Shown in pieces: positions 36,961 to 52,594 of a stretch of 64,000 bases of DNA. The notes under the pieces were generated by a model, which was given only the letters and a program-made list of their open reading frames with translations, was not told the origin of the DNA and did no database searches. Source of the DNA: an uncultured Bacteroidales bacterium. Its GTDB lineage: Bacteria > Bacteroidota > Bacteroidia > Bacteroidales > Bacteroidaceae. Made by a program: the position numbers and the translations under genes. Every line of letters starts with the position of its first letter. The first letter of the stretch is position 1. Location of the stretch: contig CADBXS010000004.1 in NCBI GenBank assembly GCA_902798705.1, positions 1,350 to 65,349 on the forward strand, in the 5' to 3' direction.

Positions 36961-36962
36961 TT

Positions 36963-36994
36963 AAATAAAAGGCAGGGCACTTTCGCACCCTGCC
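36963..36994 (-). terminator. Cassette terminator (GGCAGGGTGCGAAAGTGCCCTGCC + T-rich tail on the minus strand)
   Basis: The hairpin lies ~30 nt after the small-ORF stop. The same stem sequence follows the small ORFs at 39893, 45784 and 52564. Confidence 0.7.
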
Positions 36995-37022
36995 ACCTTA
37001 TTATATATAATGAGTCTCTATT

Positions 37023-37184
37023 TTACCACTGATACTGACCGAAGCCCTTCTCTTCCTCTTCGTAACGCTCCTTGCTCTCCGCTGGCTTAGTAGGGTCTGC
37101 AGGAGTGTCCGATGTATTCAGTTGGCAAAGAGTCAGTGAAGGAACTCTCACAAGCGTCTCTGGAATCAAATATACTTTTTTCAT
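37023..37184 (-). CDS. Conserved cassette small protein, copy 1 (53 aa)
   Basis: MKKVYLIPETLVRVPSLTLCQLNTSDTPADPTKPAESKERYEEEEKGFGQYQW, 33 nt after the stop of the 812-aa gene. The start is chosen by alignment with the four other copies; the ORF track extends it to 37217. Confidence 0.75.
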   Translation of the reverse strand: MKKVYLIPETLVRVPSLTLCQLNTSDTPADPTKPAESKERYEEEEKGFGQYQW

Positions 37185-37217
37185 TATTTCAGTCATTTTT
37201 ATAGTTTTTAAAATCAA

Positions 37218-39656
37218 TTACTTCACGATGACCTTGCGAGTCGTACCGTCAGCCATCTTCAAGATGTTCACACCCTTCTCGATACGGTTCAGCTTCACAC
37301 CGTCAACACTGTAGATGCCTTCGTAAGCACCACTGGTCAGAGCATTGAGTGCATTGATAGCAGTTGCATCATCACCACCAAGGTAGAATGCCTTCACATT
37401 GCTGTCCTTTGTGAGGTAAGCACGGTATGGAGTGTTAATCGTAAATTCACCTTCTACCTTGTAGAATGCCTGCTTGCCATTCAGAGTCTGGAGAACATAA
37501 CTACCTTCAGGTACAGTTGTTTCAGCAAACACACCAGTAAGATAACCTGCTGTATAAGGTTCTGTTCCTGCCATTCCAAAATCTGATTGACTTGCATTTA
37601 CGTTTTCATCACCTGCCTGAAGGATATAAGGAGTGTTTGCTTTCAAGTCAGAAACTTCATCGAGAGTGATGGAATTACCATTGACAGCTTCGATAGTGAA
37701 ATATGTAACACCATTAATAGCGTCTGGAACGAAAGGATAGATGCGAGTTGCAAACTTATTAGCATCAATATTTGTTGTTACTTCGGCTTTAACAGCTTCA
37801 GCAACCGTGAAATCAGCATTGCCTTCCTCTGTATAGATGTTTCCACCTGCTTGTGCTGCAATAGAAGAGTTGGTTTTTGTGTTATATATGTTAAAAGCGC
37901 CTTCAGTCGTAGAAGCAACTATTCTGAAAGCCATTTTATTATCACTAATAGTGGTGCCTTGAATCTGCCAATCAGCCCAACCTGCAGCACTGCTGTTATT
38001 CGTTCCATTAGTCAAATATACAGTACCTTCAGGAAGGTCAATACTGATGTAGTAGTCGTTTGGATTCTCTGCATCACCTGCAGAAGTGAATGTGAATGCT
38101 TGTGCCAAGTAAGAAGTTGCGGCATTTTTTACATTTAAGCCATAACCTGTAGGATTATTCGCTGTTGTAGATCCAGGAGTTATAAAAATAGGATTGTCAA
38201 AATAATCATGACCACTTGTAGCGACTTTTATATAGTATTTTGTTCCTTCAGCTGGAGGATTGAGTGCTACATTCTTGTATGATGCAATAGCATCTGAAAG
38301 AGCTTCTGTAGAAGATTCCACTACATCAAGGGTTGCCTCTGCATCATCATATACTTCTTGAGCAGAACTGCGAATTGATATGAAGTCAGATGCCTCAGAA
38401 GATGGGATTTGGAATACTCCATCACCTACATTTGAAGTATTTAAGCCATTAGCTTCTGTTATCTTTTCATAAAGAATACCCTTTGCAGCAGCAATATCAT
38501 CAGCTTCTGTAAGACCACTAATATATGTCAAGTTAAAATAATCGGCTTTAAACCAAGATGAGCTTGAAACTTTGATTTCAGCTTGACCTGAGGAAATCAA
38601 AACATCATCAATTGAAACTGTTGTTCCTGTTTCTTTGTTCTCGGTTATAACAGTATTACTACCGCTTCCAAACGAAAGAGTAACTTCTTTGCCATTATCA
38701 CTGGAAACTATTGCAGAAATAGCATAATGACCTTGAGGCAAGTTATTAATTGTCTGCGTAACATAAAAATCTACAGGCGATCCATTCCATGTGTTGAAAA
38801 CATAATTACCGTTACTATTACTGAAGCCATAGCTCCCCACACTTGATGCCACTTTTGTGTCTCCAGTTGCAGCTGAATTTGCTGACCAAGCATTAAGATT
38901 TCCTGTTTCAAAAGAATAGTTAGGTACAAGTCCAGTTACGTCAGCATTTGTTGCATCGGTCATATTGTAAAGTTTGAGGTTGTCCCAAATGATGTCGGAA
39001 CGACCGCTATTCACCATGTTTTGAACCAATGAAATCGTAACACTACTCTCTTCTGTTACTTTAAAGAACACACCAAGTTTTGTCCATGGAGCAGTTTTCA
39101 TATAGGTGTCACTACCAGGGTTTGAACCATTATTCGCTATAGAATAGGCACGTTTTACAGCTGCTGTTGTACCAATTGTGGTGTCAGAAGCATCTTTAAC
39201 TGTGATTCCGATTGTAGTTCCATTTTTCCCTGCATTATTATTATTAGAATAATCTGCAGCTTTATAATAGATTTCAGCATAATATAAGCCTACAGGCAGT
39301 GCTTGAGATGTAGTTGTTTTCAATTCAGAGTTTTTATTAGCCCAACCTTGACGATTGAAATAATAATACGTACCATTTTGTGGTGTAATGGAGCCACCAT
39401 TCACGAATCCTGAAGAAGAGCCACTTGCTTCACTCTCCACTTGATAGTTACTCATTGATGGTACTTCCCATCCAAAGAGGCCATTACTTAAAGTGTTTTT
39501 AACAGTGACATCTGTAGTCCCATCTGCAGCTTTGAGTATTTCAAAGTCTGGATTAACAAGGTACGTGCTTGTCACGTCCGTTTGTGCTTGGATGTTGTTC
39601 CATCCGAGCATACCTGTGACTAAAGCCACAGCAAAAAGTAGTCCTTTTCTTTTCAT
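37218..39656 (-). CDS. Cassette cargo 1: 812-aa secreted modular protein with a T9SS C-terminal domain
   Basis: Signal peptide MKRKGLLFAVALVTGMLGWNNIQAQ. It contains CBM-like beta-sandwich modules, a FIVAR-like helical linker and a beta-trefoil-like segment. The shared pre-CTD module is KFATRIYPFVP..ANTPYIL..YVLQTLNGKQAFYKV..YRAYL. The CTD is GIYSVDGVKLNRIEKGVNILKMADGTTRKVIVK. Confidence 0.85.
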   Translation of the reverse strand: MKRKGLLFAVALVTGMLGWNNIQAQTDVTSTYLVNPDFEILKAADGTTDVTVKNTLSNGLFGWEVPSMSNYQVESEASGSSSGFVNGGSITPQNGTYYYFNRQGWANKNSELKTTTSQALPVGLYYAEIYYKAADYSNNNNAGKNGTTIGITVKDASDTTIGTTAAVKRAYSIANNGSNPGSDTYMKTAPWTKLGVFFKVTEESSVTISLVQNMVNSGRSDIIWDNLKLYNMTDATNADVTGLVPNYSFETGNLNAWSANSAATGDTKVASSVGSYGFSNSNGNYVFNTWNGSPVDFYVTQTINNLPQGHYAISAIVSSDNGKEVTLSFGSGSNTVITENKETGTTVSIDDVLISSGQAEIKVSSSSWFKADYFNLTYISGLTEADDIAAAKGILYEKITEANGLNTSNVGDGVFQIPSSEASDFISIRSSAQEVYDDAEATLDVVESSTEALSDAIASYKNVALNPPAEGTKYYIKVATSGHDYFDNPIFITPGSTTANNPTGYGLNVKNAATSYLAQAFTFTSAGDAENPNDYYISIDLPEGTVYLTNGTNNSSAAGWADWQIQGTTISDNKMAFRIVASTTEGAFNIYNTKTNSSIAAQAGGNIYTEEGNADFTVAEAVKAEVTTNIDANKFATRIYPFVPDAINGVTYFTIEAVNGNSITLDEVSDLKANTPYILQAGDENVNASQSDFGMAGTEPYTAGYLTGVFAETTVPEGSYVLQTLNGKQAFYKVEGEFTINTPYRAYLTKDSNVKAFYLGGDDATAINALNALTSGAYEGIYSVDGVKLNRIEKGVNILKMADGTTRKVIVK

Positions 39657-39799
39657 AATGTAAAAATTTGTTAGTTAAAAAAATGTCTATTAGATGCAGA
39701 GAGATTCATCGCGGGAGGAAGGTTATTCGTTATCAATAATTCATTGCTCACAATTCCCCATTCTCTACTTTCGAATCTTTCCTGTAATATATTGGTTTG

Positions 39800-39807
39800 C
39801 AAATATA
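39800..39807 (-). promoter_or_regulatory. Candidate -7 box (TATATTTG on the minus strand) for cargo 1
   Basis: A TAnnTTTG match ~145 nt upstream of the ATG. Confidence 0.4.
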
Positions 39808-39892
39808 AAACTTTTTTTTCGTTTTGACACTTTATCATAAAAAAAACAATCCAAACAAATAGAATTTCATTTCCTATTATCACAAAACGAGA

Positions 39893-39922
39893 CAAAAATA
39901 GCAGGGTACAAAAGCACCCTGC
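39893..39922 (-). terminator. Cassette terminator (GCAGGGTGCTTTTGTACCCTGC + T-rich tail on the minus strand)
   Basis: The hairpin lies ~65 nt downstream of the stop of small ORF copy 2. Confidence 0.65.
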
Positions 39923-39984
39923 CACCTTAAATTATAAAAAGAATTTAGTAAATTTTGTCTGTTTCTTTAGGAGATTTCAGTCTT

Positions 39985-40146
39985 TTACCACTGGTACTGA
40001 CCAAAGCCCTTTTCGTCCTCTTCGTAACGTTCCTTGCTCTCCGCTGGCTTAGTAGGGTCTGCAGGAGTGTCCGATGTATTCAACTGGCAAAGAGTCAGTG
40101 AAGGAACTCTCACAAGCGTCTCTGGAATCAAATATACTTTTTTCAT
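39985..40146 (-). CDS. Conserved cassette small protein, copy 2 (53 aa); not in the ORF track
   Basis: My own translation gives MKKVYLIPETLVRVPSLTLCQLNTSDTPADPTKPAESKERYEEDEKGFGQYQW, 39 nt after the stop of the 855-aa gene. Confidence 0.75.
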   Translation of the reverse strand: MKKVYLIPETLVRVPSLTLCQLNTSDTPADPTKPAESKERYEEDEKGFGQYQW

Positions 40147-40185
40147 TGTTTTCATTATTCTATTTGATAAGTTAATAATAATCGA

Positions 40186-42753
40186 TTACTTCACGATGAC
40201 CTTGCGAGTCGTACCGTCAGCCATCTTCAGGATGTTCACACCCTTCTCGATGCGGTTCAGCTTCACACCGTCAACACTGTAGATGCCTTCGTAAGCACCA
40301 CTGGTCAGAACTTCAAGCGTGTTGATAGCAGTTGCATCACCACCAAGGTAGAATGCCTTTACCTCTCCTGTCGTATTGAGATATGCACGATATGCAGGAA
40401 CTGTTATTGGATCAACAACCTTGTAGAATGCCTGCTTATCATTCTGAGTCTGGAGAACATAACCAGAAGTAATAGTATTTTCAGCAAACACACCTGTGAG
40501 CAAACCTACTGTATATTCTGCATCTACGTGGAAGTCAAAACCCTTCTGAGTGATGTCAATTTCTGCTTCAGAAGCATTCTCAAGGATATATGGAGTGTTT
40601 GCTTCAGGAGCAGAGACTTCTGTCAGAGCAAGCGCATTTCCTTCCTTAGTTTCGCAAGAGTAGAACCTAACACCATCTTTTTTCTCTGGCTTAAATGGGA
40701 AGATACGAGTAGCAAACTTACCAACTCCAAGAGTACCTGGAACATTTGCGATGATGTCTGCATTGTCAGTAAGAACTGTAGCGTCACAGAAACTTACCCA
40801 CATGTGTTCAGCAGTAGCTTTTGCTTCAACAGCCACATTCACTGTAGCAGCTTCAGTAAGTGTAAACTGCACATAGCGCCATTCGAAGCCGCGTCCAGCA
40901 TTATTGTTGGCGTAACTACCTTCAGGAGAGAAGTTAGTAGCACCACTTTTGTCAATACCACGACCTGTGTCACCACGAGGGAAGTCAGAAACAGTACCAA
41001 GCACAGTTTCTCCATTCTTCACAGTCAGGCTCAAACTTACATTATCACTGCTTGCTTGACGACCAGCCACCTTGAATACATATTTACCTGCAGGAAGTAA
41101 TAAATCCTGGTAGTATTTAATTTCCCAACCGCTACTATTCCATGCTGCACCCGATTGCTCCAAATAAGGGCGTGGCTCACCACTCCAATGCTGTTCTGTC
41201 AAAGAACCCGTTGGGCCTTCTTCTTGCCAAGTACCGAGTTCAACACCATATCCATATTCTGTAGTCACAAAATTGTATTCAGCCACCTTCAAATCTTGAA
41301 CATTTGTGTATGAATTTACAGTGGTTTCATCCATACCCAGTGCTATTGCCTTTGGTCTCTCTGCCAGCAATGCTTCGTATGCTAAAGCAGCTTCATAAGC
41401 AGCTTTCGCAGGAGCAACTTCTGTAGCTGTGCCCTCATTGTATGAAGTAAGTACATCAGCATATAATACTTGTGCTTCTGCAGATAGAGTTGCAGCCAAA
41501 GCGTTATAACCAGCTATTTCAGTATATATTTCAATGGATGCTTTGGCATCAATGATTGCAGAAGTCAATGCATTGTAGTTTGCTACAGAAGCCGTATTTT
41601 GGAAATTAGCGACAGCTGTGTTCAGTGCAGTCTCAACCTCAGCATTCATTTTGCCAGAAGGAACTTCTGCTAAAAGTGCATTGATTTCATCCTCAGGCAT
41701 TTCACCAAGATATGTAATAGTCACATTTTTGAAAGACAACCAGTTGATTTCAGCATTTTCAATCTTGAAGCCATATTCAATTGGAGTTCCTGCCACACCA
41801 TCAGCCATAGCTGTATAAGTGCCAAGGCGTCCCTTTCCGCCATTGACTGGTGCGCCAGAGCATGCGTCACTTTCTGCATCACCCACAAAGATCTTTACTC
41901 CCGTCACAGCACCACCACCCTCATTCATGGCACGTACCCATGCACTGACTTTATAGACACCTGTTTCTGTTGGAGTGTAAGAGCCTGTGATGGTAGCATC
42001 TTCTAATTTACCACCACTTGCTACCCACAACTCATGGAATCGCACCTGGAAGCGAGAACCATCTCTCTGACCTTCTGTTGACCAGAAGTTGGTATGCCAA
42101 CCTTGGGTACCGCTATATGTAAACGGATCGACACTATTGTTTGGCACAGCGAAAATATTTGTTGAATTAAGAGTAAGCTTCACGTTCCTAATCTGGCACC
42201 AATCAATCTTGCTATCATCAGTAAGCTTTTTGATACCAAACTCGTATGCCGTGTTCGCGGTCGTCACATCCAAGGTGAAAGAGACATTATGGAAGTTGGC
42301 ATCACCAGCTGCTGCTATATTGGTAATGTCAACGTCGGTTTCACCTGTCAAGAATGCAACAGCATCGCCTGCTTGAGGAAGGGTATTTGGATCAGCAGAG
42401 TTGGTGGCGTTACATGCAAATGCCTCAAAGCTTAGAGTGTAATTACCTGCAGGAAGCACCACCGTACGTCCCATCATCACACCGCTACTACCGAAACCTG
42501 GAGACCAGCTTTCGCCAATACCACCATCAGCATTTGGTGCTGCAAATGCGTGCCATCCAGATGGGAGATTTTGATTATTCCACCATCCAATACCGTCAGA
42601 CTCCTTATGGTTGCTTGAAGTATGGTTATGACCACCACCATTCACAATCCATGTAACATCACCAATATAACTTTCCGTTACATCGGTTTGAGCCCACAAG
42701 CTACTTGCCATAATCATGGCTGTAGCCAAAGTAAGTAATCTTTTTCTTTTCAT
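40186..42753 (-). CDS. Cassette cargo 2: 855-aa secreted modular protein with a T9SS C-terminal domain
   Basis: Signal peptide MKRKRLLTLATAMIMASSLWAQ. It has CBM-like modules and a long Ala-rich FIVAR-like helical region. The shared pre-CTD module is KFATRIFPFKP..ANTPYIL..YVLQTQNDKQAFYKV..YRAYL. The last ~42 codons are nearly identical at the DNA level to cargo 1. Confidence 0.85.
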   Translation of the reverse strand: MKRKRLLTLATAMIMASSLWAQTDVTESYIGDVTWIVNGGGHNHTSSNHKESDGIGWWNNQNLPSGWHAFAAPNADGGIGESWSPGFGSSGVMMGRTVVLPAGNYTLSFEAFACNATNSADPNTLPQAGDAVAFLTGETDVDITNIAAAGDANFHNVSFTLDVTTANTAYEFGIKKLTDDSKIDWCQIRNVKLTLNSTNIFAVPNNSVDPFTYSGTQGWHTNFWSTEGQRDGSRFQVRFHELWVASGGKLEDATITGSYTPTETGVYKVSAWVRAMNEGGGAVTGVKIFVGDAESDACSGAPVNGGKGRLGTYTAMADGVAGTPIEYGFKIENAEINWLSFKNVTITYLGEMPEDEINALLAEVPSGKMNAEVETALNTAVANFQNTASVANYNALTSAIIDAKASIEIYTEIAGYNALAATLSAEAQVLYADVLTSYNEGTATEVAPAKAAYEAALAYEALLAERPKAIALGMDETTVNSYTNVQDLKVAEYNFVTTEYGYGVELGTWQEEGPTGSLTEQHWSGEPRPYLEQSGAAWNSSGWEIKYYQDLLLPAGKYVFKVAGRQASSDNVSLSLTVKNGETVLGTVSDFPRGDTGRGIDKSGATNFSPEGSYANNNAGRGFEWRYVQFTLTEAATVNVAVEAKATAEHMWVSFCDATVLTDNADIIANVPGTLGVGKFATRIFPFKPEKKDGVRFYSCETKEGNALALTEVSAPEANTPYILENASEAEIDITQKGFDFHVDAEYTVGLLTGVFAENTITSGYVLQTQNDKQAFYKVVDPITVPAYRAYLNTTGEVKAFYLGGDATAINTLEVLTSGAYEGIYSVDGVKLNRIEKGVNILKMADGTTRKVIVK

Positions 42754-42863
42754 GTTGAAAAATAATTAGTTAATATTTAAGTTGATTGTAAATAATAATC
42801 GAGTGAAAATACTTTTGAACCATCTTGTAGGAAATCCACGGATAATCCATAGTTCCAAAGGTG

Positions 42864-42871
42864 CAAAGTTA
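42864..42871 (-). promoter_or_regulatory. Candidate -7 box (TAACTTTG on the minus strand) for cargo 2
   Basis: A TAnnTTTG match ~110 nt upstream of the ATG. Confidence 0.4.
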
Positions 42872-42959
42872 AGACAAAATTATTAAAACCGACATTCTTC
42901 GTGTAAAAAACTTTATATAAATAAGGTAAACCAAGAACTTTTGTCAATAAATGACTCAA

Positions 42960-43320
42960 ATTTGAACAATAGCCTCTTAAATATCTCCTAAAGAAACGTA
43001 CTAAATAGACAAAAGAGAAATTATTTAGTAAATTTAGTCTATTTGGCTACGCCGAGCTGAAGGTTCTTCAGGAGGCTTTCATTTGAAAAAATTCATGATA
43101 AATTCGTGGCAATTGGTGTTAAAAATAAAACATGAATTACCATATAATTTCCCATAAATTTTTGTCTATTTAGTCTGTTTCTACGGAGTTTTGGAGTATT
43201 GGAGTTTTATAGCCTCCTAAAGAAACGTACTAAATAGACAAAAGAAAATATAGTATATTTGGTTTATTTCTTTAGGAGACCCATTGTTTCTTTAGGAAAT
43301 TTTTTCCACCGTGAACGATT
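42960..43320. repeat. Composite word-repeat block in the divergent intergenic region
   Basis: CTCCTAAAGAAACGTACTAAATAGACAAAAG appears twice (42985-43015 and 43214-43244). Inverted TTTCTTTAGGAG words lie at ~43267 and ~43287. The block also holds GGCTACGCCGAGCTGAAGGTTC, a ~95-nt unit (ATTCATGATAAATTCGTGGCAATTGGTG..) and a TCTACGGAG word. Confidence 0.75.
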
Positions 43321-43368
43321 TTCATTAAAAAAGTACGAATTTGTTAATTACCTATATAAAAAAAGCGT

Positions 43369-43376
43369 TAAATTTG
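43369..43376 (+). promoter_or_regulatory. Candidate -7 box (TAAATTTG) for cargo 3
   Basis: A TAnnTTTG match ~150 nt upstream of the ATG at 43525. Confidence 0.4.
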
Positions 43377-43524
43377 CAGCGGAAATTATAGGTGTAAAAG
43401 GATGAATTCCCCGATGGATTCGTAAAAAACAAACCATTCCGTCTTTTCACAAACCCACCACACCTATCCCTAAACGAGATAAAAAAACTAATATTCAAAT
43501 TTTTAACTATCAAATTTTAAAATC

Positions 43525-45537
43525 ATGAAACATTTTACAAAAAAATTAGCGCTCCTCACCCTCTTAGCAGGATTGTGCGGAAGTGCATGGGCAGATACTA
43601 TCAATGCTACATTGGATCATACTGCCAGTTCATCAAGAGACGGTTCCAATAATATTACAACAACCGTTGACCAGGAAAAAGAACATTACAACAACACCAA
43701 GGCAGCTGCATGGGGTGGTTGGGCTTATGCTCAGTTCTCTTTTACTATTCCTTCTGGTCATTCTATAGCATCTGCTAAATTAACATGGGGAACAAAAATT
43801 GGTGGAAATACTAATACACGTGATAATAATATTTATTATGTAAACTCAGGAGTAGAAATAGATTATGAGTCTCTGACTTCAACTACAAATTTGAATTTAA
43901 CTGGTAGTGCTACTTACTTCACAAACGTACGACTTTATTCTGCCAACGATAATTCGTCTGTTGAAACGGATGTAACTTCAGCTGTTCAGACAATAGCCGC
44001 AACTCAGAGTTATATAATATTCGAATGGACTAACAATGCAGCAGGTGCAGATCTTTATGGAAAAATTTCTGAACATAAACCAACATTGGTAATTACTACT
44101 GTTGCTGAAACTTTATATACAGCAACTTTTTCAGAAACAACAGGTCTCACACCAACAATAGCTATTTTCAAGGATGAAGATAGAACAGAACCTATTACAA
44201 ATGGTGCGCTGAGAAATAATACAACTTATTACTACACTGCTACTTTATCTGGCTATTATGATTATAATGGCTCTTTCAAAGTGAATGGTGATAATCCTTC
44301 TGTTTCTTTTACAATGGATGCAAAATCGTTGATAACTTATAATGTTGTTGCTGTCGATGGTGAAGGAAATATATTGAGCACTCTATCTACAGGTACTGTT
44401 TATGAAGGTGAAACTGCCAACTATGGCTATTCTCAATTTATCGCAGTAGATGGTGTACTATATACTACAGCAAGACAATACTCTAATCCTTGGTGGGGCA
44501 AAAGCTTCACACCTCAAGCAGACGGTGAAACTGTAACCGTTACTTATACTCCAGAAGGTACGACGGGAGTTGTATTCTGTGAAGAAGCTGAAAACATCAG
44601 TACATTGACTACAGTGACTGGTGGAAACACAGACATCCGAGCTTCAAATCGTGCTGGCGGTTATGCAGCAAGCGATGCTCTCATCACTACACTTCCTGCA
44701 GGCAAATACAAAGTTGCAGGAGCGACATACGGTAATGAGGGAACAACTTTCACTGTGAAAGCAGGTGAAAACATCGTACTGACTATTACCACATCAGGAA
44801 ATCCTGTTCATACAGTAGGTGAAGAATTTGTTCTGACAGAAGAGACAGAAATCATTGTCCCTAAAGCTGGTAATGGAGGTAATTCTCCAAAAAGCATCGA
44901 CTACCTCTTCATTGTTAAGACTGGTGATGTAGTTTCACCTCCTGTCACTTTGAACATTGGTACTATCGGCTATGCTACATTGTACTATTCCGACCGTGCA
45001 TTGGTTGTTCCAGCAGGAGTTGAGGCTTATACTTACACCGTTACTGAGGGTGGAGCTGCTTACTCTACTATATACTCCGAAGGAGAAGTGATTCCAGCAG
45101 ATGAGGCCGTTGTCATTTACAAGCAGGGAGGTGGTGATGCTATATTTGAAGTTTCGTCCGAAAATCCAACCAAGAGTAGCGACAATATGCTGAGGGGCTT
45201 TGATACGACTCATTTAACTGAAGGTGGAGATATTTTCTATGCTTTAAGCCTTAATGCATCTGGGGATGAAAACAGTATTGGTTTCTACTGGATGGAAGAA
45301 AATGGAGAAGCCTTCGAAAGTGGTGCTCACAAGGCTTATCTTGCATTGCGCAATGAAGGTGAAGTAAACGTGAAGAGCTTCTACGCCTTTGGCAATTCCA
45401 CAACAGCTATTCAGGGCATCGAAATGAATGCTTTCATGAAGGATGCAGTCATCTACAACCTCGCTGGCCAACGTGTATCTGCTCCAGTGAAGGGCAATAT
45501 GTACATTGTGAACGGCAAAAAGGTGATGATGAAGTAA
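43525..45537 (+). CDS. Cassette cargo 3: 670-aa secreted protein with a T9SS C-terminal domain
   Basis: Signal peptide MKHFTKKLALLTLLAGLCGSAWA. The divergent pre-CTD module is IGYATLYYSD..VPAGVEAYT..VIPADEAVV..NMLRG..FYALS..GFYW..AHKAYL. The CTD VIYNLAGQRVSAPVKGNMYIVNGKKVMMK is close to that of the 2359-aa protein. Confidence 0.85.
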   Translation: MKHFTKKLALLTLLAGLCGSAWADTINATLDHTASSSRDGSNNITTTVDQEKEHYNNTKAAAWGGWAYAQFSFTIPSGHSIASAKLTWGTKIGGNTNTRDNNIYYVNSGVEIDYESLTSTTNLNLTGSATYFTNVRLYSANDNSSVETDVTSAVQTIAATQSYIIFEWTNNAAGADLYGKISEHKPTLVITTVAETLYTATFSETTGLTPTIAIFKDEDRTEPITNGALRNNTTYYYTATLSGYYDYNGSFKVNGDNPSVSFTMDAKSLITYNVVAVDGEGNILSTLSTGTVYEGETANYGYSQFIAVDGVLYTTARQYSNPWWGKSFTPQADGETVTVTYTPEGTTGVVFCEEAENISTLTTVTGGNTDIRASNRAGGYAASDALITTLPAGKYKVAGATYGNEGTTFTVKAGENIVLTITTSGNPVHTVGEEFVLTEETEIIVPKAGNGGNSPKSIDYLFIVKTGDVVSPPVTLNIGTIGYATLYYSDRALVVPAGVEAYTYTVTEGGAAYSTIYSEGEVIPADEAVVIYKQGGGDAIFEVSSENPTKSSDNMLRGFDTTHLTEGGDIFYALSLNASGDENSIGFYWMEENGEAFESGAHKAYLALRNEGEVNVKSFYAFGNSTTAIQGIEMNAFMKDAVIYNLAGQRVSAPVKGNMYIVNGKKVMMK

Positions 45538-45586
45538 TCACTTGAAGAATTTATTTATTAATCATAAAAAAACAGACATGAAAATC

Positions 45587-45751
45587 ATGAAAAGATACGA
45601 AGCTCCAGAAATGAAAATGCGTCAGATATCATTGGCAAGCATAATGCAGCAATCTCCATTAGACATTCATGATGAAATTGGTGGTGGCCAGCTTACGAAG
45701 GAGCGTGATGACGCTGAAGCTGAAGGCTGGAACGAGAATGGCCTCTGGTGA
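45587..45751 (+). CDS. Conserved cassette small protein, divergent copy 3 (54 aa)
   Basis: MKRYEAPEMKMRQISLASIMQQSPLDIHDEIGGGQLTKERDDAEAEGWNENGLW. It has the same position, size and MK+/Y/PE/SL/KER/acidic/terminal-W pattern as the other four. The ORF track extends the start to 45542. Confidence 0.6.
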   Translation: MKRYEAPEMKMRQISLASIMQQSPLDIHDEIGGGQLTKERDDAEAEGWNENGLW

Positions 45752-45783
45752 TTTAGAGCAGGTTCTTTATATATAATTAAGGC

Positions 45784-45814
45784 AGCAGGGTGCGTAAGTG
45801 CCCTGCTTTTTTTT
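45784..45814 (+). terminator. Cassette terminator (GCAGGGTGCGTAAGTGCCCTGC + T8)
   Basis: A hairpin plus T-run ~30 nt after the stop of small ORF copy 3. Confidence 0.75.
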
Positions 45815-45818
45815 GAAA

Positions 45819-45857
45819 GCCTCACCCCCAGCCCCTCTCCAAAGGGCGAGGGGAGTA
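45819..45857. repeat. REP-like palindromic element, copy 4 (inverted orientation)
   Basis: GCCTCACCCCCAGCCCCTCTCCAAAGGGCGAGGGGAGTA. Confidence 0.75.
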
Positions 45858-45869
45858 GAATGAGTAATG

Positions 45870-46560
45870 AAAAATGAAACTCCAAGACTCCTAAACTCCG
45901 TAGAAAAGAACTAAATAGACTAAAATTCATGGGTAATTATATGGTAATTCATGTTTTTATTTTTAACACCAATTGCCACGAATTTATCACGATTTTTTTT
46001 GTCCATTTAGTACATTTCTTTAGGAGGCTATGAAACTCCAAGACTCCTAAACTCCGTAGAAAACAATTAAAAGCGAGTCAACGATAACCATAACGATAAC
46101 TGCCGTCCGGATGGAAAGTTAAGGTTAAGGTTAGGGTTAAGGTTAAAAGTTAATTAGATGGTAATTCATGTTATTATTTTAACACGAACCTTCGACAAAA
46201 GCCAATCGGTCCTTCGATTCTACTAAATCATTTCTTCGATTGTACTAAAACGCTGAGCCTTCGTTATCGTAACGCCGAACCTTCGCTGGTGCAACGCCGA
46301 AGGCTCGCCGATTCGATGCCGAACCTTCGGCAATTCTACGGAGTATAGGAGTTTATTAGCCTCCTAAAGAAATGTACTAAATAGACAAAAAAGAAAATTT
46401 AGTTAATTTGGTCAGTTTCTTTAGGAGATTATTTGTTTTTCTACGGAGGTAAGGAGTATTGGAGTTTCTTTTTTCATTCAACCTTAACCCTAACCTTAAC
46501 CTTAACTTTCCATCCGAACGGCAGTTATCGTTATCGTTATGGTTATCGTTGTTTTCTTCA
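45870..46560. repeat. Composite word-repeat block between cassettes 3 and 4
   Basis: It contains inverted TCTACGGAG words (45876, 46032) and forward ones (46334, 46440). It also holds the ~110-nt unit in the orientation opposite to 43088-43180, the GATAAC/GGTTAA hexamer hairpin element in both orientations (46074-46146 and 46470-46552), and a CGAACCTTCG/GAAGGCTCG block (46180-46330). Confidence 0.8.
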
Positions 46561-46623
46561 TTATTTTTATGGGGTTGATGACTTTTTTTGAGGAAAAGAG
46601 GGACGGGATACAAAAAAATGTTG

Positions 46624-46631
46624 TAACTTTG
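46624..46631 (+). promoter_or_regulatory. Candidate -7 box (TAACTTTG) for cargo 4
   Basis: A TAnnTTTG match ~86 nt upstream of the ATG at 46717. Confidence 0.45.
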
Positions 46632-46716
46632 CAAGGTTTTTCTATTTATAGAAAAGCTTTTGGATCTACTGCTTATTATCTAAAACTAATTTATATTCTT
46701 TAAAAACTTAATTACA

Positions 46717-48807
46717 ATGAAAAAAATTACTCAAAACTTAAGATGGCTCGTCACGCTATTGGCTATGATAGTTTGCACGGGCGCGTGGGCACAAGAAACT
46801 GGTACCATTATCTTTGGTAATAACGGAACAAAGATAACAAAAGCCTCTGTTACAGGTGATGATGATAAAGGTAATACTTGGACCATTACTTCTACTGGTA
46901 CAACTTCTTATACTCAAAATACGAATTATAGTCAAGTTGGAAAATCTACTGAACCAGCCACCAGTATTACTTTTACTACTACGTTAACAGATGATGTGAC
47001 CTTTACTTCTTTTTCCGCAAAGTTCGGAGGTTTCAGTGGAACAGCAGGAACAGTCACTCTGAAAGTCGGTAACACAACTGTAGGTACAGGAAGCTTAAAT
47101 GGCTCGAATGATGTTACTGTTAGTTCAACTACATCGGAGACTGGTAAGGTTCTCACTGTAACTGTGACAGGTATATCAAGAGGCGTGAAGTGCTATTATA
47201 TTTCATATACGTATACTTCTGCTTCTGGAAAGCAGAATTCCCAAATAGCATGGAGCGCAAGTGAGGCTTCTGCCACTATGGGCAACAATTTTAATAATGC
47301 TCCAACGTTGTCCAACCCTTATAATTTACCTGTTACTTACAATTCAAGTGCTCCAACCGTTGCAACTATCGGTAATAATGGTGCAATCACTCTTGTTGGT
47401 GCAGGAACAACTACCATTTCAGCTGTGTTTGTTGGTGACGACACATACGATGCTAAGACTGTTAGCTATACACTGACCGTCAGCAAGCAAGATGTGACAT
47501 TGTCTTTCTCTGAGACATCATTCAATATAGATTTTGATGACAAGGATTCTTTTGAAGAGCCAACTTTAACTGGTGTTCCAGAGGGTTTGACTGTCACTTA
47601 TGCAAGTAATAAAACCAGTGTTGCAACTGTTGATGCTACAACAGGTGACGTGACAATCGTTGGTAAGGGTTCAGCACAAATCACTGCTACTTTTGCTGCC
47701 ACCGATATTTACAATGGTGCAAGCAAAACTTATACTATCAACGTAACAGGAACTTACAAGAAAGCCAATGGGTACTATGCATTAGTAACAGACGCTTCAA
47801 CACTTGCAGAAGGCGATGAAATCATCATTGTTAACACAGACGCTAATGTTGCATTAAGTACAAATCAAAAAACAAACAATCGTGATGAGATTTCTTTAGC
47901 TAATGCTACTTGGAATGCTGAAAATACTCTTGTTGAGATAACAATCAATGAGACAGGTGATAATGTTCAGGCTTTGACCTTGGAAGCTTCAAGCGACAAA
48001 TGGCTTTTCAATACAGGAAATGGTTATCTTTATGCTGCAAGCAGTTCAAATAATTACATGAAAACAGAAGCAACAGCAGATAACAATGCAAAAGCTACTA
48101 TAAGCATTTCAAACGGTAACGCTACAATTACTTTCAAAGGAAGTAATACTCGCAACACCATATTCTATAATTCAAGTAGTAATTTGTTCTCATGCTATGC
48201 CTCTTCAACTACAAATCAGGATCCAGTTCAGATTTACAGGAAGGTAGCAGTTGTTGAAGGAACTCTTGCTGCAGGCAAGTATGCAACCCGCATCTATCCA
48301 TTTGCTCCAAAGACTATCGAAGGTGTTACATTCTATACTTGTATTGGTGTGAACGGTAATGCACTTGCACTTCAACCAATTGACGAACCAGTAGCTAATG
48401 TTCCTTATATCCTCGGAAACGAAACAACGGATGCCATTGACATCACTCAGATGGGTGTTGACATTCACGAAGCAGATACTTACACAGTAGATTTGCTCAC
48501 TGGTACATTCGTAAACATGGACATCACATCTGGTTATGTTCTCCAGACTCAGAACGGTAAGCAGTCGTTCTATAAGGTTGTTGATGCAATCAACGTACCT
48601 CCTTACCGTGCATACCTCGATTACGATGCAGAAATCAAGGCACTCGGATTTGACGATGCAACTGCTATCAACACACTTGAGGTTCTGACCAGCGGTGCAT
48701 ACGAAGGCATCTACAGTGTTGACGGTGTGAAGCTGAACCGCATAGAGAAGGGTGTGAACATCTTGAAGATGGCTGACGGCACCACTCGTAAGGTGATTGT
48801 GAAGTAA
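46717..48807 (+). CDS. Cassette cargo 4: 696-aa secreted modular protein with a T9SS C-terminal domain
   Basis: Signal peptide MKKITQNLRWLVTLLAMIVCTGAWAQ is nearly identical to that of cargo 5. It has two Big_2-like Ig repeats (PVTYNSSAPTVATIGNNGAITLVGAGTTTISA.. and LTVTYASNKTSVATVDATTGDVTIVGKGSAQITA) and a module shared with cargo 5 (YALVTDASTLAEGDEIIIVN..FSCYAS..VQIYRKV). The shared pre-CTD module and CTD follow. Confidence 0.85.
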   Translation: MKKITQNLRWLVTLLAMIVCTGAWAQETGTIIFGNNGTKITKASVTGDDDKGNTWTITSTGTTSYTQNTNYSQVGKSTEPATSITFTTTLTDDVTFTSFSAKFGGFSGTAGTVTLKVGNTTVGTGSLNGSNDVTVSSTTSETGKVLTVTVTGISRGVKCYYISYTYTSASGKQNSQIAWSASEASATMGNNFNNAPTLSNPYNLPVTYNSSAPTVATIGNNGAITLVGAGTTTISAVFVGDDTYDAKTVSYTLTVSKQDVTLSFSETSFNIDFDDKDSFEEPTLTGVPEGLTVTYASNKTSVATVDATTGDVTIVGKGSAQITATFAATDIYNGASKTYTINVTGTYKKANGYYALVTDASTLAEGDEIIIVNTDANVALSTNQKTNNRDEISLANATWNAENTLVEITINETGDNVQALTLEASSDKWLFNTGNGYLYAASSSNNYMKTEATADNNAKATISISNGNATITFKGSNTRNTIFYNSSSNLFSCYASSTTNQDPVQIYRKVAVVEGTLAAGKYATRIYPFAPKTIEGVTFYTCIGVNGNALALQPIDEPVANVPYILGNETTDAIDITQMGVDIHEADTYTVDLLTGTFVNMDITSGYVLQTQNGKQSFYKVVDAINVPPYRAYLDYDAEIKALGFDDATAINTLEVLTSGAYEGIYSVDGVKLNRIEKGVNILKMADGTTRKVIVK

Positions 48808-48841
48808 TCAATTTTAATAACATAAATAACCATTCAGACAA

Positions 48842-49003
48842 ATGAAGAAATCATATTTGATTCCAGAGACCATTGTGAGAGTTCCTTCGCTGACTCTTTG
48901 CCAGCTGAGTACATCGGACACTCCAGCAAACCCTCAGGTGCCTGTAGATAGCAAGGAGCGTCACGAAGAGGAAGAGAAGGGCTTCGGTCAGTACCAGTGG
49001 TAA
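48842..49003 (+). CDS. Conserved cassette small protein, copy 4 (53 aa); not in the ORF track
   Basis: My own translation gives MKKSYLIPETIVRVPSLTLCQLSTSDTPANPQVPVDSKERHEEEEKGFGQYQW, 34 nt after the cargo stop. Confidence 0.75.
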   Translation: MKKSYLIPETIVRVPSLTLCQLSTSDTPANPQVPVDSKERHEEEEKGFGQYQW

Positions 49004-49046
49004 AGTTAAGTGACGTAGTTCTCTTCTACGTTATTCCATAGGTTTG

Positions 49047-49103
49047 GTGGGCAATTCAGAAGAACTGTTTGAAAGTTTTTCACGAATTGCCCACCTTTTT
49101 TTT
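49047..49103 (+). terminator. Terminator (GGTGGGCAATTC ... GAATTGCCCACC + T8)
   Basis: A 12-bp stem with a ~25-nt loop and a T-run. It differs from the terminator of the other four cassettes. Confidence 0.6.
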
Positions 49104-49218
49104 ATGTAGAGTCGGAGTGTTCATTTTTTCGTATGTCACTGATTGCATACGAAAGTGTTGATTTTCATGTCATTTGCAATTTATTTTGAAAAAAGGCGAT
49201 AGGGTTCAAAAAAAATTG

Positions 49219-49226
49219 TATCTTTG
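49219..49226 (+). promoter_or_regulatory. Candidate -7 box (TATCTTTG) for cargo 5
   Basis: A TAnnTTTG match ~67 nt upstream of the ATG. Confidence 0.45.
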
Positions 49227-49292
49227 TGCCGAATATAACACTTTTTGTACGGAGAATCTTTATTTACTATAATCATCAAAACTAAAAACTAA

Positions 49293-52200
49293 ATGACAAT
49301 GAAAAGAATTACGCAAAACCTAAGATGGCTCGTCACGCTATTGGCAATGATAGTTAGCACGGGTGCGTGGGCAGAAGAAACTATTACTTTGTCTGAGCAA
49401 GGCTATACAGATGGAGAGGAAGTTTCTTCAACTGTAGGAACGGACTTTACAATCACTTATAACAAAGGAACATCAACTGCAGCACCTAAATATTATAACA
49501 CAGGTGAAGGTGTACGAGTTTATGCAGGAGGAAATGTAGTGGTTTCTTCAGAGAAAATAATGACAAAAGTAGTTTTCACCTATACAAAAAATAATAGTCC
49601 TACAGTAGAAATTGGAAATAAAACCGTAAGCTCCCCAGCGACATGGGAAGGCTCAGCTAAATCTGTGCAATTAGATGTCAAAACAAAAGGCCACATTCGT
49701 TTGCAGTCGGTAACAGTCACTTTTGAAGATGATGGAGAAGCTACTCTTATAACTATTGCAGAAGCACGCGCTCTAGGAACAGGTTCTGTTTACACTTCGG
49801 GTGTTGTAACCAGCTGCGTTGGAACAAATGCATATATTCAAGATGCTACAGCAGCTATTTGTGTTTATGGTAATGCAAATCTTGTTGTTGGCAATGAAAT
49901 TACTGTTCAAGGAACGCTGACTACTTACAACGGATTACTGGAAATAATGAATCCTACTTGTACGGTGGTTTCCTCTGGCAATTCGATTAGTCCTACAGTA
50001 AAGACAATCGCCGAGATCAACACGGACTATGCAGGAAACAATGAACTCCAAGGTGTGCTTGTGAAAATTGAGAATGCTACTGTGAATGCTAAAGATGGTC
50101 AGAACACTACTATTGCTCAAGGTAATAACACCATTGTTGTTCGTGGTATTTCTTCAAATGTCACCTTTGGTGTGGGTGATGTCATCACTCTTACTGGTAA
50201 TGTGGGATGCTATAATGCTGTTCAAATTGTAAATCCAACAGATGTAGAGGTTAGCCAATTACCTTCCATTACGTTAAGCACAAATGCTATTAATGTATCA
50301 GCAGAGGGAGGAGATGGCACTATAGAAGTGAATCGTAAATATTTCGAGCCAGAATCATTTGAGATTAAATTCTATGAATCAGATGGTACAACAGAAACAG
50401 AAGGTGGTGATTGGCTTTATGTTGAAATCGATGAAAACACTGGCAATATTAATTATATAATTGAAGAAAACGCTGGTGAAGCACGTTCTGCCTATTTCAA
50501 GGTATATGGTATGGATGAAGAAATGAATGAACTCTATTCAGAGTTAATCACTGTCACTCAAGCTGCCTACGTAGCTCCTTCCATTGCTGCCCTTCCATTT
50601 GCATTCGATGGTGGTCGTGCTGACATAGAAGGAACAGATGGCCTCACACAAGAAGGCCTTGATAAAGACTATGCCATTTCTCCTAAGCTGAAATTCGATT
50701 CTACTGGCGACTGGGTGTTGCTTCAATTTGATGAGGCGCCTGGTGACTTGAGCTTTGACATCAAGGGCTATAGCTTTTCTGGTGGTACATTCAAAGTTCA
50801 AACTTCGGTAGATGGTAATACTTACACAGACTTGAAAACTTATACTGATTTAGGTAATACACAATCATCAGAGGTATTCAAAAACTTGAACGAGAATGTT
50901 CGATACATCAAATGGATTTACACAAATAATGTATCTGGCAATGTAGGATTGGGCAATATCAGTCTTACAAAATATGTGGCACCACAGCCTTATACTATGA
51001 CCATCACACCTAATAACAATGCAACTATTAAGGCGTTCTATTATAATGATGTAAATGATTTTATTTGGATTAACAACGGAGATGAAGTACTGTCTAAAAC
51101 AAAGGTGTATATTGCTGTTCATGCTAACAATAACTATGAGGCAAAGAGCGTCACTGTGACCGATGGAAACAATGTAAACGTAACAGTTACCAAGGAGCCA
51201 GTTTATGACGAGAACATAGATCCTGTATGGTCATTTACCATGCCAGAAAGCAATGTGACAGTGTCATGCAAAGTGAAGGAAATTGTAGAATTAAAATTCG
51301 AAAAGGTGACCTCGACAGATGGTCTTTTTGAAGGAGGTGATTATATCATTGTTAATGAGGAGAACTCTAAGGCCATGAGCACTACTCAAAACAGCAATAA
51401 TAGAGGAGCAGCAGAAATAATTTTAGATAATGGCACTGCTACGATTGGTGAAGACACTCAGATATTCACTCTTGAGGGTGGTTCTGATGGTTGGTATTTC
51501 AACACTGGCGATGGATATATATATGCAGCTTCAAAAAGTAGTAATCAGTTGAGAACGAAATCTGAAAAAAACGATGAAGCAAAAGCTGTAATATCGATTG
51601 ATGATGATGGAGATGCAACGATTACATTCCAGAGGGAAGGTCGAAACACAATCATGTTTAACCCTCAAATATTCTCATGCTATGCAAGTAATGCCACAAT
51701 GCAGCCTGTTCAGCTTTACAAAAGGGTGGGACAAAGTCCAATCACTATCGACGAGAATACAACTCTTGCTGTTGGCAAGTATGCAACTCGCATCTATCCA
51801 TTTGCTCCAAAGGCTATAGAAGGCATTACATTCTATTCTTGCAAGGCTGTGAATGGCAATGCTCTCGCTCTCACTCCTGTAACTGAATTGAAAGCCAACA
51901 CTCCTTATATCCTTGGCAACGATGGAGATGGAGCAACTGAGGCTATTAGCATCAAGCAGACAGGTGTTGACAAACACGAGGAAGATACTTACACAGAAGG
52001 TTATCTTACAGGTGTGTTTGCTGCGACGACTGTACCTGAAGGCAGTTATGTTCTCCAGACTCAGAATGAAAAGCAGGCATTCTACAAAGTAGAGGGTGAA
52101 TTTACGATTAACACTCCATACCGTGCATACCTCACTGTGCCTACTGACGTTGCTGGAAATGTGAAGGCATTCTACTTGGGTGTTGACGAAGCAACTGCTA

Positions 52201-52340
52201 TCAACACGCTCGACGTTCTGACCAGCGGTGCATACGAAGGTATCTACAGTGTTGATGGTGTGAAGCTGAACCGCATGGAGAAGGGCGTGAACATCCTGAA
52301 GATGGCTGATGGCACCACTCGCAAGGTCATCGTGAAGTAA
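49293..52340 (+). CDS. Cassette cargo 5: 1015-aa secreted modular protein with a T9SS C-terminal domain
   Basis: The signal peptide is homologous to cargo 4; the start may be the second ATG at 49299 (MKRITQNL). It has an OB-fold-like segment of the kind seen in extracellular nucleases (IAEARALGTGSVYTSGVVTS..VQGTLTTYNGLLEI) and a BACON-like segment (ITLSTNAINVSAEGGDGTIEV). The module shared with cargo 4, the shared pre-CTD module and the CTD follow. Confidence 0.85.
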   Translation: MTMKRITQNLRWLVTLLAMIVSTGAWAEETITLSEQGYTDGEEVSSTVGTDFTITYNKGTSTAAPKYYNTGEGVRVYAGGNVVVSSEKIMTKVVFTYTKNNSPTVEIGNKTVSSPATWEGSAKSVQLDVKTKGHIRLQSVTVTFEDDGEATLITIAEARALGTGSVYTSGVVTSCVGTNAYIQDATAAICVYGNANLVVGNEITVQGTLTTYNGLLEIMNPTCTVVSSGNSISPTVKTIAEINTDYAGNNELQGVLVKIENATVNAKDGQNTTIAQGNNTIVVRGISSNVTFGVGDVITLTGNVGCYNAVQIVNPTDVEVSQLPSITLSTNAINVSAEGGDGTIEVNRKYFEPESFEIKFYESDGTTETEGGDWLYVEIDENTGNINYIIEENAGEARSAYFKVYGMDEEMNELYSELITVTQAAYVAPSIAALPFAFDGGRADIEGTDGLTQEGLDKDYAISPKLKFDSTGDWVLLQFDEAPGDLSFDIKGYSFSGGTFKVQTSVDGNTYTDLKTYTDLGNTQSSEVFKNLNENVRYIKWIYTNNVSGNVGLGNISLTKYVAPQPYTMTITPNNNATIKAFYYNDVNDFIWINNGDEVLSKTKVYIAVHANNNYEAKSVTVTDGNNVNVTVTKEPVYDENIDPVWSFTMPESNVTVSCKVKEIVELKFEKVTSTDGLFEGGDYIIVNEENSKAMSTTQNSNNRGAAEIILDNGTATIGEDTQIFTLEGGSDGWYFNTGDGYIYAASKSSNQLRTKSEKNDEAKAVISIDDDGDATITFQREGRNTIMFNPQIFSCYASNATMQPVQLYKRVGQSPITIDENTTLAVGKYATRIYPFAPKAIEGITFYSCKAVNGNALALTPVTELKANTPYILGNDGDGATEAISIKQTGVDKHEEDTYTEGYLTGVFAATTVPEGSYVLQTQNEKQAFYKVEGEFTINTPYRAYLTVPTDVAGNVKAFYLGVDEATAINTLDVLTSGAYEGIYSVDGVKLNRMEKGVNILKMADGTTRKVIVK

Positions 52341-52374
52341 TCATTTTTTATAACATAAACAACAATTAAGACAA

Positions 52375-52536
52375 ATGAAGAAAGTATATTTGATTCCACA
52401 GACGATTGTGAGAGTTCCTTCGCTGACTCTTTGCCAGCTGAATACATCGGACACTCCTGCAAACCCTCAGGTGCCTGTAGATAGCAAGGAGCGTCACGAA
52501 GAGGACGAGAAGGGCTTCGGTCAGTATCAGTGGTAA
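52375..52536 (+). CDS. Conserved cassette small protein, copy 5 (53 aa); not in the ORF track
   Basis: My own translation gives MKKVYLIPQTIVRVPSLTLCQLNTSDTPANPQVPVDSKERHEEDEKGFGQYQW, 34 nt after the cargo stop. Confidence 0.75.
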   Translation: MKKVYLIPQTIVRVPSLTLCQLNTSDTPANPQVPVDSKERHEEDEKGFGQYQW

Positions 52537-52563
52537 AATTGAGACTCATTATATATAAAAGGT

Positions 52564-52592
52564 GGCAGGGTGCGTAAGTGCCCTGCTATTTT
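52564..52592 (+). terminator. Cassette terminator (GCAGGGTGCGTAAGTGCCCTGC + T-rich tail)
   Basis: The stem-loop is identical to the one at 45784. Confidence 0.7.
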
Positions 52593-52594
52593 AG

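Follow-up and report, generated by a model that had tools for sequence, protein, structure and literature searches.

Cargo recognition by a type IX secretion system (T9SS) is currently explained by a C-terminal tail on the cargo together with shuttle proteins that all cargo shares. A locus from an uncultured Bacteroidales bacterium raises the question of whether some cargo might have, in addition, a private partner. In the 64,000-nucleotide stretch of contig CADBXS010000004.1 that we analyzed (hereafter the window, numbered from its first letter), the region 36963-52592 contains five large genes encoding predicted surface proteins, each with a small open reading frame (ORF) behind it in the same orientation. 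We conclude from comparative evidence that this ORF encodes a protein. It belongs to a widespread family that bears no functional name, it is tied to large proteins that combine a so far unannotated β-domain with a short T9SS tail, and it may be an accessory factor in the export of its neighbor's product.

Five pairs of a large and a small gene

An earlier note on this DNA had described five units of one layout, and all of them (U1 to U5 below) lie where it placed them; since coordinates, hairpins and promoter-like boxes were all recovered, that layout is real. The large proteins are 670-1015 aa long, and all five carry an N-terminal type-I signal peptide. In the following list, CTD stands for the C-terminal domain that forms the secretion tail, and pre-CTD for the domain in front of it.

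37218-39656, minus strand: U1 large gene, an ORF for an 812-aa signal-peptide surface protein (profile match of the C-terminal module, E = 9.4e-78)
37221-37862, minus strand: U1 pre-CTD β-domain and putative short CTD, the last ~214 aa of the large protein
37023-37184, minus strand: U1 small ORF, 53 aa, MKKVYLIPETLVRVPSL...KGFGQYQW (other possible starts at 37196 and 37217)
36971-36994, minus strand: U1 terminator hairpin, GGCAGGGTGC-GAAA-GTGCCCTGCC and then a T-run (-22.5 kcal/mol, z = -5.4)
40186-42753, minus strand: U2 large gene, an 855-aa signal-peptide surface protein with a DUF5013 domain (Pfam)
40189-40800, minus strand: U2 pre-CTD domain and putative short CTD
39985-40146, minus strand: U2 small ORF, 53 aa, or 56 aa if the ATG at 40155 is used
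39895-39928, minus strand: U2 terminator hairpin, core GCAGGGTGC-TTTT-GTACCCTGC (-22.9 kcal/mol)
43525-45537, plus strand: U3 large gene, 670 aa (profile match, E = 4.5e-34; no BLASTP match to the other units)
44896-45534, plus strand: U3 divergent pre-CTD domain and putative short CTD of the GxY type
45578-45751, plus strand: U3 small ORF, 57 aa (54 aa from 45587), MKRYEAPEMKMRQISL...EGWNENGLW, of a divergent subfamily (with P0011, P0018 and P0019)
45784-45807, plus strand: U3 terminator hairpin, then T8
46717-48807, plus strand: U4 large gene, 696 aa
48190-48804, plus strand: U4 pre-CTD domain and putative short CTD
48842-49003, plus strand: U4 small ORF, 53 aa
49046-49103, plus strand: U4 terminator, a distinct 12-bp stem GGTGGGCAATTC...GAATTGCCCACC and then T8 (-29.8 kcal/mol, z = -5.9)
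49293-52340, plus strand: U5 large gene, 1015 aa
51702-52337, plus strand: U5 pre-CTD domain and putative short CTD, the stretch used for the AlphaFold2 model (predicted local distance difference test, pLDDT, 88.5)
52375-52536, plus strand: U5 small ORF, 53 aa
52559-52592, plus strand: U5 terminator hairpin (-22.6 kcal/mol)
49219-49226, plus strand: candidate Bacteroidota -7 box of U5, TATCTTTG, by consensus match; the others lie at 46624-46631 (U4), 43369-43376 (U3), 42864-42871 on the minus strand (U2) and 39800-39807 on the minus strand (U1)

The two genes of a unit are separated by an A/T-rich spacer of 33, 39, 49, 34 and 34 nt in U1 to U5 respectively, as had been proposed, and none of the five spacers contains a hairpin, terminator-like or other. 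The predicted TAnnTTTG box is present 74-156 nt upstream of each large gene (74 nt in U5), and none occurs within 200 nt upstream of any of the five small ORFs; these boxes are consensus matches only, against a background of ~1 per kb counting both strands. At the other end of the unit, the motif GCAGGGTRC-N4-GYRCCCTGC occurs exactly four times in 64 kb where none would be expected, after U1, U2, U3 and U5, which bears out the claim of a terminator hairpin shared by four of the five units; the stem of U4 differs. All five hairpins fold strongly (-18.6 to -29.8 kcal/mol, z = -3.5 to -5.9) and have T-runs after their stems. Because there is no promoter-like box or terminator hairpin between the genes and a strong hairpin after the small ORF, we infer that each unit is co-transcribed as a two-gene operon.

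Two other relations between the small ORF and its neighbors were considered and rejected. The large and small ORFs share a reading frame in U1 and in U2, where one TAA and 11 (37185-37217) or 13 (40147-40185) sense codons lie between them on the minus strand. Stop-codon read-through to a fusion protein is not conserved, since U3 to U5 and most homologues use another frame, and spacers of 20-145 nt span all three frames. Nor is the small ORF a leader of the gene that follows: downstream genes vary, are often on the opposite strand, and lie beyond the terminator.

Several lines of evidence indicate that the small ORF is a coding gene. A codon comparison of 16 copies, from the window and related contigs, gave ratios of non-synonymous to synonymous substitution rates (dN/dS) of 0.02-0.3 at dS values of ~0.4-2; between the U1 copy and that of contig L008, for example, there are 11 synonymous changes and one non-synonymous change. 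Homologues conserve both termini and differ by in-frame indels in the middle. The encoded proteins of U1, U2, U4 and U5 show 81-92% mutual identity, and the U3 copy, at 31% identity, keeps the same layout. At the DNA level, the four similar units are 50-70% identical in the pre-CTD domain, 88-94% in the secretion tail, 66% in the spacer, 84-93% in the small ORF and 30-50% downstream, so the ORF is conserved beyond its flanks. The description of the units as five paralogous cassettes thus holds for their shared layout and C-terminal module and not in the sense of simple copies, identity being so uneven. Together with the lack of any credible Rfam family at the locus, the low dN/dS, the in-frame indels and the conservation above the flanks lead us to conclude that the small ORF encodes a protein.

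The family to which this protein belongs is large. A profile built from the five copies retrieved 40 clusters of 53-64 aa proteins (47-96% identity) in a database clustered at 90% identity, and 163 clusters once it had been broadened with distant members. A HMMER search of 1.84 billion representatives then gave 903 clusters (50% identity) at E <= 0.001, nearly all of 47-75 aa and matching from residue 1. Homologues thus exist well outside this locus, and those with genomic context occupy the same position. None of the 903 clusters bears a functional name, the small ORFs have no match in Pfam, NCBIfam, PADLOC, PHROGs or PDB sequence profiles, and the type IX literature searched yielded neither a description of such a family nor a paper on it. 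Two cluster-mates that might have been natural fusions, P0270 (669 aa) and P0261 (467 aa), are unrelated sequences that had been wrongly clustered. The few organism labels read Bacteroidaceae bacterium, Paraprevotella sp. and uncultured Prevotella sp., and the samples come from rumen, pig gut and gut metagenomes; Prevotella-like bacteria dominate the rumen, the pig gut and many human guts. Two scans of species-representative genomes, one with the small-ORF profile and one with the C-terminal module, yielded no confirmed locus, possibly owing to narrow patterns or masked stretches, and a metagenome scan yielded six loci from a narrow subfamily only. The family was not found on viral contigs.

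The same data bear on the idea that the ORF has no protein function, its conservation stemming from gene conversion of cassette 3' ends or from an RNA element in the 3' untranslated region. The 3' ends of four units are indeed homogenized, tail and ORF alike, and even U3, divergent as it is, retains the terminator hairpin. However, synonymous changes dominate between species-level homologues, indels keep the frame, conservation is lower in the spacer, which would lie within such a conversion tract, than in the ORF, no Rfam family matches, and 903 diverged clusters retain the protein's motifs and length. This explanation is contradicted by coding signal, family size and motif conservation, and we regard it as scarcely tenable.

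The cargo and its link to the small gene

What kind of protein precedes the small ORF? BLASTP similarity among the large proteins of U1, U2, U4 and U5 is limited to their last 190-215 aa (57-67% identity), apart from U4 and U5, which share 363 aa. The C-terminal module ascribed to all five is therefore present throughout, although U3 is so distant that it was recognized by profile only. The parts in front of it differ between units, as had been noted: Pfam finds only weak or marginal matches there, DUF5013 in U2 and, below threshold, Big_2 in U4 and F5/8-C in U5, while the FIVAR-like and OB/BACON-like modules proposed earlier were not reproduced.

For the C-terminal 212 aa of U5, AlphaFold2 (74 aligned sequences, pLDDT 88.5) predicts a confident all-β domain at residues ~12-160, a low-confidence linker, and a helix followed by three strands. 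The β-domain, of ~150 aa, corresponds to no Pfam or NCBIfam model, and a search of the PDB with its model returned no fold match (best E = 0.098, TM-score <= 0.18). Its conserved residues are hydrophobic, aromatic, glycine and proline, with no polar catalytic set, a composition that suggests a role in structure or binding and not in catalysis.

The tail had been taken for a T9SS C-terminal sorting domain. It is probably of T9SS type, though not the canonical type A: the type-A models TIGR04183 and PF18962 matched neither the five proteins at E <= 1 nor three distant homologues at E <= 10, and the seven-strand (3+4) β-sandwich of that type is not seen in the U5 model, whose tail is a helix (168-175) and three strands (178-182, 195-201 and 206-211). 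The type-B models TIGR04131 and PF13585 did not match either. The tail consists of 47 aa, AINAL...IYSVDGVKL..KGVNIL..RKVIVK, after a predicted cleavage site ...DDAT/AINALNALTSGAYEGIYSVDGVKLNRIEKGVNILKMADGTTRKVIVK. The short CTDs described in Prevotella intermedia have 40-55 aa and a cleavage motif of a small residue followed by x-Ile with a conserved Ile; a motif B in which a basic residue follows conserved Tyr and Gly; a motif D of GxY or GxN and then Ile; a motif E with two basic residues; and a single three-strand sheet, sometimes with a helix (PMC11969387). Compared by eye with these published features, IYSVDGVK would be motif B, KGVNIL (KGNMYIV in U3) motif D and RKVIVK (KKVMMK in U3) motif E. 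In length, motifs, predicted three-strand sheet and a host with a T9SS, the tail therefore fits this short class. By analogy with other cargo, the large proteins are presumably exported by the T9SS, with cleavage of the predicted tail.

The same tail occurs elsewhere. In the window, the product of the gene at 14951-22030 on the minus strand, 2359 aa long and with a signal peptide, has a large internal duplication and this tail (IYDLNGQRVRVPVKGNIYIVNGKKMFLK) but not the β-domain; one of its modules, at the N-terminal end (..NTWS.EGE.DG..F.VPFYEYW..), is also present in U2 and in a 1430-aa protein of contig L005. Matches to PDB sequences, 8bbl_A (~860-901) and 4kca_A (641-681), cover essentially the short tail only. 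Since these solved glycoside hydrolases, a β-N-acetylhexosaminidase (8bbl_A) and an arabinanase (4kca_A) of rumen-metagenome origin, end in it, their sequences suggest that the short tail is common outside P. intermedia.

The link between the two genes is strict. Across the window and related contigs L001-L026, the C-terminal module was strongly matched in 35 genes, and all 35 have a small ORF 20-88 nt downstream on the same strand. Three further pairs lie in L027 (145-nt spacer), in L031 and, as a third pair, in L001 (divergent, with a module score below the level for counting); two further subfamilies show the same arrangement, with spacers of 29 and 145 nt. All five distant homologues of the module that were picked regardless of any ORF carry a small ORF of the same design and very different sequence, such as MKKNYIAPEMMVANVQLESMIALS...SRADAWSDQW. 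This makes about 20 distinct pairs, with spacers of 20-145 nt, in unrelated neighborhoods (aroA/porW, GH115, GH2, patatin, DUF4493 and an MFS transporter). Conversely, the small ORF was never seen without a domain-plus-tail gene wherever upstream sequence existed. The outcome therefore goes in favor of the earlier note, which would have taken a lack of homologues elsewhere, or of positional linkage to CTD-bearing genes, as refutation.

Proteins with one half of this architecture lack the ORF. None follows the tail-only proteins, namely the 2359-aa protein of the window, as the earlier note had also observed, and those at L022 2-1276 and L013 3-1130; the tail-only proteins of L013 and L022-24 are Calycin/Flg_new proteins with the same short tail and no β-domain. 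Nor is there a small ORF, even at E <= 10, in 16 viral loci encoding a phage structural protein that has the β-domain without signal peptide or tail, a contrast that represents one lineage. This protein, P0123, has 374 aa and a structural counterpart in BFVD (A0A8S5QQ35, 'Bacterial repeat domain-containing protein', E = 7e-11). Since tail-only and domain-only proteins lack the ORF, and the ORF never occurs without such a gene, it is tied to the combination of β-domain and short tail and not to T9SS cargo in general.

Three side observations concern individual loci. In P0123 (L032-L048, IMG/VR viral contigs, match at ~3001-4100), the β-domain lies between a ~140-aa domain and an InlB-B-repeat-like PF18998 domain. 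In L014 (2232-4477), the cargo gene is split inside the β-domain (589 and 158 aa), by a frameshift or an assembly error, and the small ORF still follows. In L015, a PorP_SprF-family gene (433-1374, minus strand) adjoins a cargo/small-ORF pair and is divergently transcribed, which may be coincidence.

This arrangement invites comparison with immunity proteins: the small protein could be an antidote-like inhibitor that masks a harmful activity of the β-domain until export. The ORF lies directly 3' of the conserved C-terminal part, its product is small, acidic and predicted to be cytoplasmic, and it is absent where the domain is not in a secreted protein. However, the conserved residues of the domain are not those of a catalyst, the variable end is N-terminal, the opposite of polymorphic toxins, the small ORFs are neither hypervariable nor do they track the partner domain, and nothing in the defense or toxin libraries matched. 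We therefore consider an antidote role very unlikely.

What the small protein may do

The sequence of the small protein offers a starting point. Its consensus consists of M-K-K-x-Y-[IL]-x-P-E, a strand-like hydrophobic segment ending in [MI]-A-L-S, A-D-(P)...V-L-x-K-[EG], and a Trp-containing acidic tail. In 268 members of the family, Y5 and P8 are invariant, A30 is conserved in 91% and the C-terminal Trp in 95%; a Trp falls within the last 25 residues in 96% and is the last residue in 59%. Their median length is 56.5 aa and their mean net charge -5.7. The protein had been described as acidic and devoid of a signal peptide, and so it appears: judged by composition rather than by a dedicated predictor, no Sec signal peptide or conserved lipobox Cys was found in the family, since positions 5-24 contain on average 2.7 charged residues, and the longest run free of charged or polar residues and Pro averages 5.6. 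AlphaFold2 (49 sequences), applied to the small protein alone, found no stable secondary structure or fold (predicted template modeling score 0.20), and homology to the C-terminal module or tail was rejected (hhalign probability 0.06%).

Some of these features recall the precursor of an exported, processed peptide, either signaling or similar to a ribosomally synthesized and post-translationally modified peptide (RiPP), with MKKxYxxPE...ALS as leader and a C-terminal Trp core, which would merely share the operon. The invariant YxxP resembles leaders recognized by a RiPP recognition element (RRE), and one member matched the lasso leader model NF033528 over residues 1-12, below threshold (E = 0.083; 12.9 bits, with the cut-off at 33). 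In addition, A-L-S at positions 22-24 looks like a cleavage site, the protein is predicted to be disordered, and a Trp is conserved near its C terminus. On the other hand, across more than 10 genomic contexts the vicinity of the pairs shows no recurring gene for a maturase, a peptidase or a transporter, the conserved blocks span the full length rather than the leader alone, and Cys is not conserved (47 of 268 members). Such a peptide would also leave the strict tie to one domain and a secretion tail unexplained, and we think it improbable.

Disorder combined with short conserved linear motifs would equally suit a regulator or sensor made in step with the cargo, which might signal how much cargo is present or that secretion is under stress, or might hold down expression of the family. 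It would, by inference, share a transcript with the cargo, and four near-identical copies in one genome would add up in their effect. The acidic, aromatic C terminus (YQW, DQW or DIW) could, for example, bind a protease or a regulator; aromatic C-terminal tripeptides are reminiscent of the C termini that PDZ proteases read on outer-membrane proteins. The sensors known to work in this way, however, are periplasmic, whereas the small protein has no export signal; ~40% of members end in a non-aromatic residue; no regulator gene recurs nearby; and a general sensor needs no tie to one class of domain. A regulatory role seems unlikely to us as well.

We prefer a different reading, to which we give a probability of roughly 40%: the small protein would serve as an accessory factor, disordered and specific for its cargo, and would bind the pre-CTD domain, the tail or both before or during export. 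The first gene would specify a protein with a signal peptide, variable domains of binding type, the ~150-aa β-domain and the 47-aa short tail, to be exported by Sec and then handled by the T9SS, with removal of the tail. The second would specify an acidic protein of 50-65 aa without a fold of its own, which would stay in the cytoplasm and fold on binding to the C-terminal end of its partner, possibly through strand addition by its N-terminal segment and anchoring by its Trp. The site would be the cytoplasm, where the last-made part of a Sec substrate of 670-2000 aa awaits translocation, and the small protein might keep that part unfolded and export-competent, masked, or correctly timed for export and later handling by the T9SS. 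An export-linked role is favored over a generic folding aid for the domain because of the contrasts with tail-only proteins, domain-only proteins and the ORF on its own. A stronger claim, that the small ORFs form the first class of cargo-specific, non-membrane T9SS accessory proteins, with at least 900 clusters, and are required through direct binding for export or anchoring, is more tentative, and we would call it possible rather than probable.

Several points weigh against this accessory role. AlphaFold2 models the β-domain confidently without a partner (pLDDT ~96 over residues 21-160), so it is not missing a strand. The small ORFs of U1 and U2 are nearly identical and follow β-domains that are only 60% identical, and binding must then use conserved surfaces or the tail. 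Because the small protein lacks a signal peptide and the cargo crosses the inner membrane unfolded, contact could take place only before export, and we know of no class of Sec substrates that needs a private cytoplasmic partner. Finally, linkage was counted on metagenome contigs to which either of the two genes had led, and not in a genome-wide census.

If an accessory role were true, it would add a cytoplasmic step with a private partner to a pathway thought to rely only on Sec, a C-terminal tail and outer-membrane shuttles common to all cargo; the presence of a widespread small gene without a name beside one class of short-tail cargo would point to an unrecognized step in the making or export of surface proteins. 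For annotation, the family provides a name and a positional rule for hundreds of small proteins now called 'hypothetical', which gene callers do not handle in a consistent way, and it defines the ~150-aa β-domain. It also suggests that rumen and gut relatives commonly carry the short tail, which has so far been reported as an unusual feature of P. intermedia. The hypothesis can be addressed by deleting a single ORF of 160 nt.

The locus and known secretion systems

The surroundings of the five units place them in a T9SS context. The lipoprotein PorW/SprE is encoded at 30952-33870 on the minus strand (NF052312, E = 5.9e-214), ~3 kb from the array and with aroA in between, and this porW-aroA-cassette synteny recurs in rumen contigs L001-L005. 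Because the window encodes PorW/SprE, the organism has a T9SS, the other components of which lie outside the window.

The intergenic DNA around the units (36500-36965, 42960-43290, 45870-46570 and 52590-53100) is a mosaic of short repeat modules. Arrays of the hexamers (GTTATC)n, (GTTAAG)n and (AACCTT)n flank a GC-rich core, TGCCGTCCGGATGGAAAG, copies of which occur in both orientations at 36861-36928, 46080-46147, 46486-46553 and 52873-52940 (94% identical in the same orientation, 94-96% complementary in the opposite one). Heptamer arrays, (CTTTTAA)n and (AGTGAAA)n, come directly after the terminators of the units, and boxes CTACGGAGTTTNGGAGTATTGGAGTTT and TTCTTTAGGAGGCT are repeated in the flanking DNA. 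A comparable short-period array lies behind the terminator in L001 (6214-6447); in translation it gives a pseudo-ORF of PINPIN repeats.

How do the pairs compare with what is known? The large genes are of a known kind, a short-tail subclass of T9SS cargo, while for the small gene the type IX literature searched offers no counterpart. It had been proposed that only cargo with a type-B CTD has a dedicated partner, and this agrees with a review of the T9SS in which PorP/SprF of type-B cargo are the only dedicated partners named and chaperones are unmentioned (PMC10202324). As with SprB/SprF in Flavobacterium johnsoniae, the partner gene is clustered with, and specific to, one class of cargo (PMC10202324). 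However, PorP/SprF proteins are outer-membrane β-barrels of ~300 aa with signal peptides (PF11751), whereas the small partner has 50-65 aa, is acidic, predicted to be disordered and devoid of a signal peptide, and the small ORFs match neither PF11751 nor any other Pfam or NCBIfam model. Nor, in contrast to type-B cargo, does the tail match TIGR04131 or PF13585.

The large proteins resemble the short-CTD cargo of P. intermedia, with a tail of 47 aa against 40-55 aa, motifs B, D and E (IYxxxGxK/R; GxN/GxY and Ile; basic-x-x-x-K) and a modeled three-strand sheet. They differ in their conserved pre-CTD domain and downstream small gene, neither of which is described in the sections of that report on which we draw (PMC11969387). 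The small ORF, in turn, shares with the leaders of RRE-dependent lasso RiPPs an N-terminal MKKxYxxP and a strand-prone segment; unlike in RiPP precursors, its C-terminal part is conserved rather than hypervariable, and no RRE, cyclase, radical-SAM or protease gene lies near the pairs.

In terms of function, the closest analogy to the accessory role proposed here is with the class I chaperones of type III secretion systems and the partners of LXG toxins in type VIIb secretion systems, which bind one region of their cargo and are needed for its stability or export (PMC10653861, PMC12478183). These too are small, acidic proteins encoded next to their cargo, the cytoplasmic location being a prediction in our case. 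The small ORFs have no sequence similarity to them. They are, moreover, folded proteins (helical or α/β) that serve export from the cytoplasm in one step, the cargo leaving along with its partner or once freed from it, whereas the cargo described here would use Sec first and its partner is predicted to be disordered.

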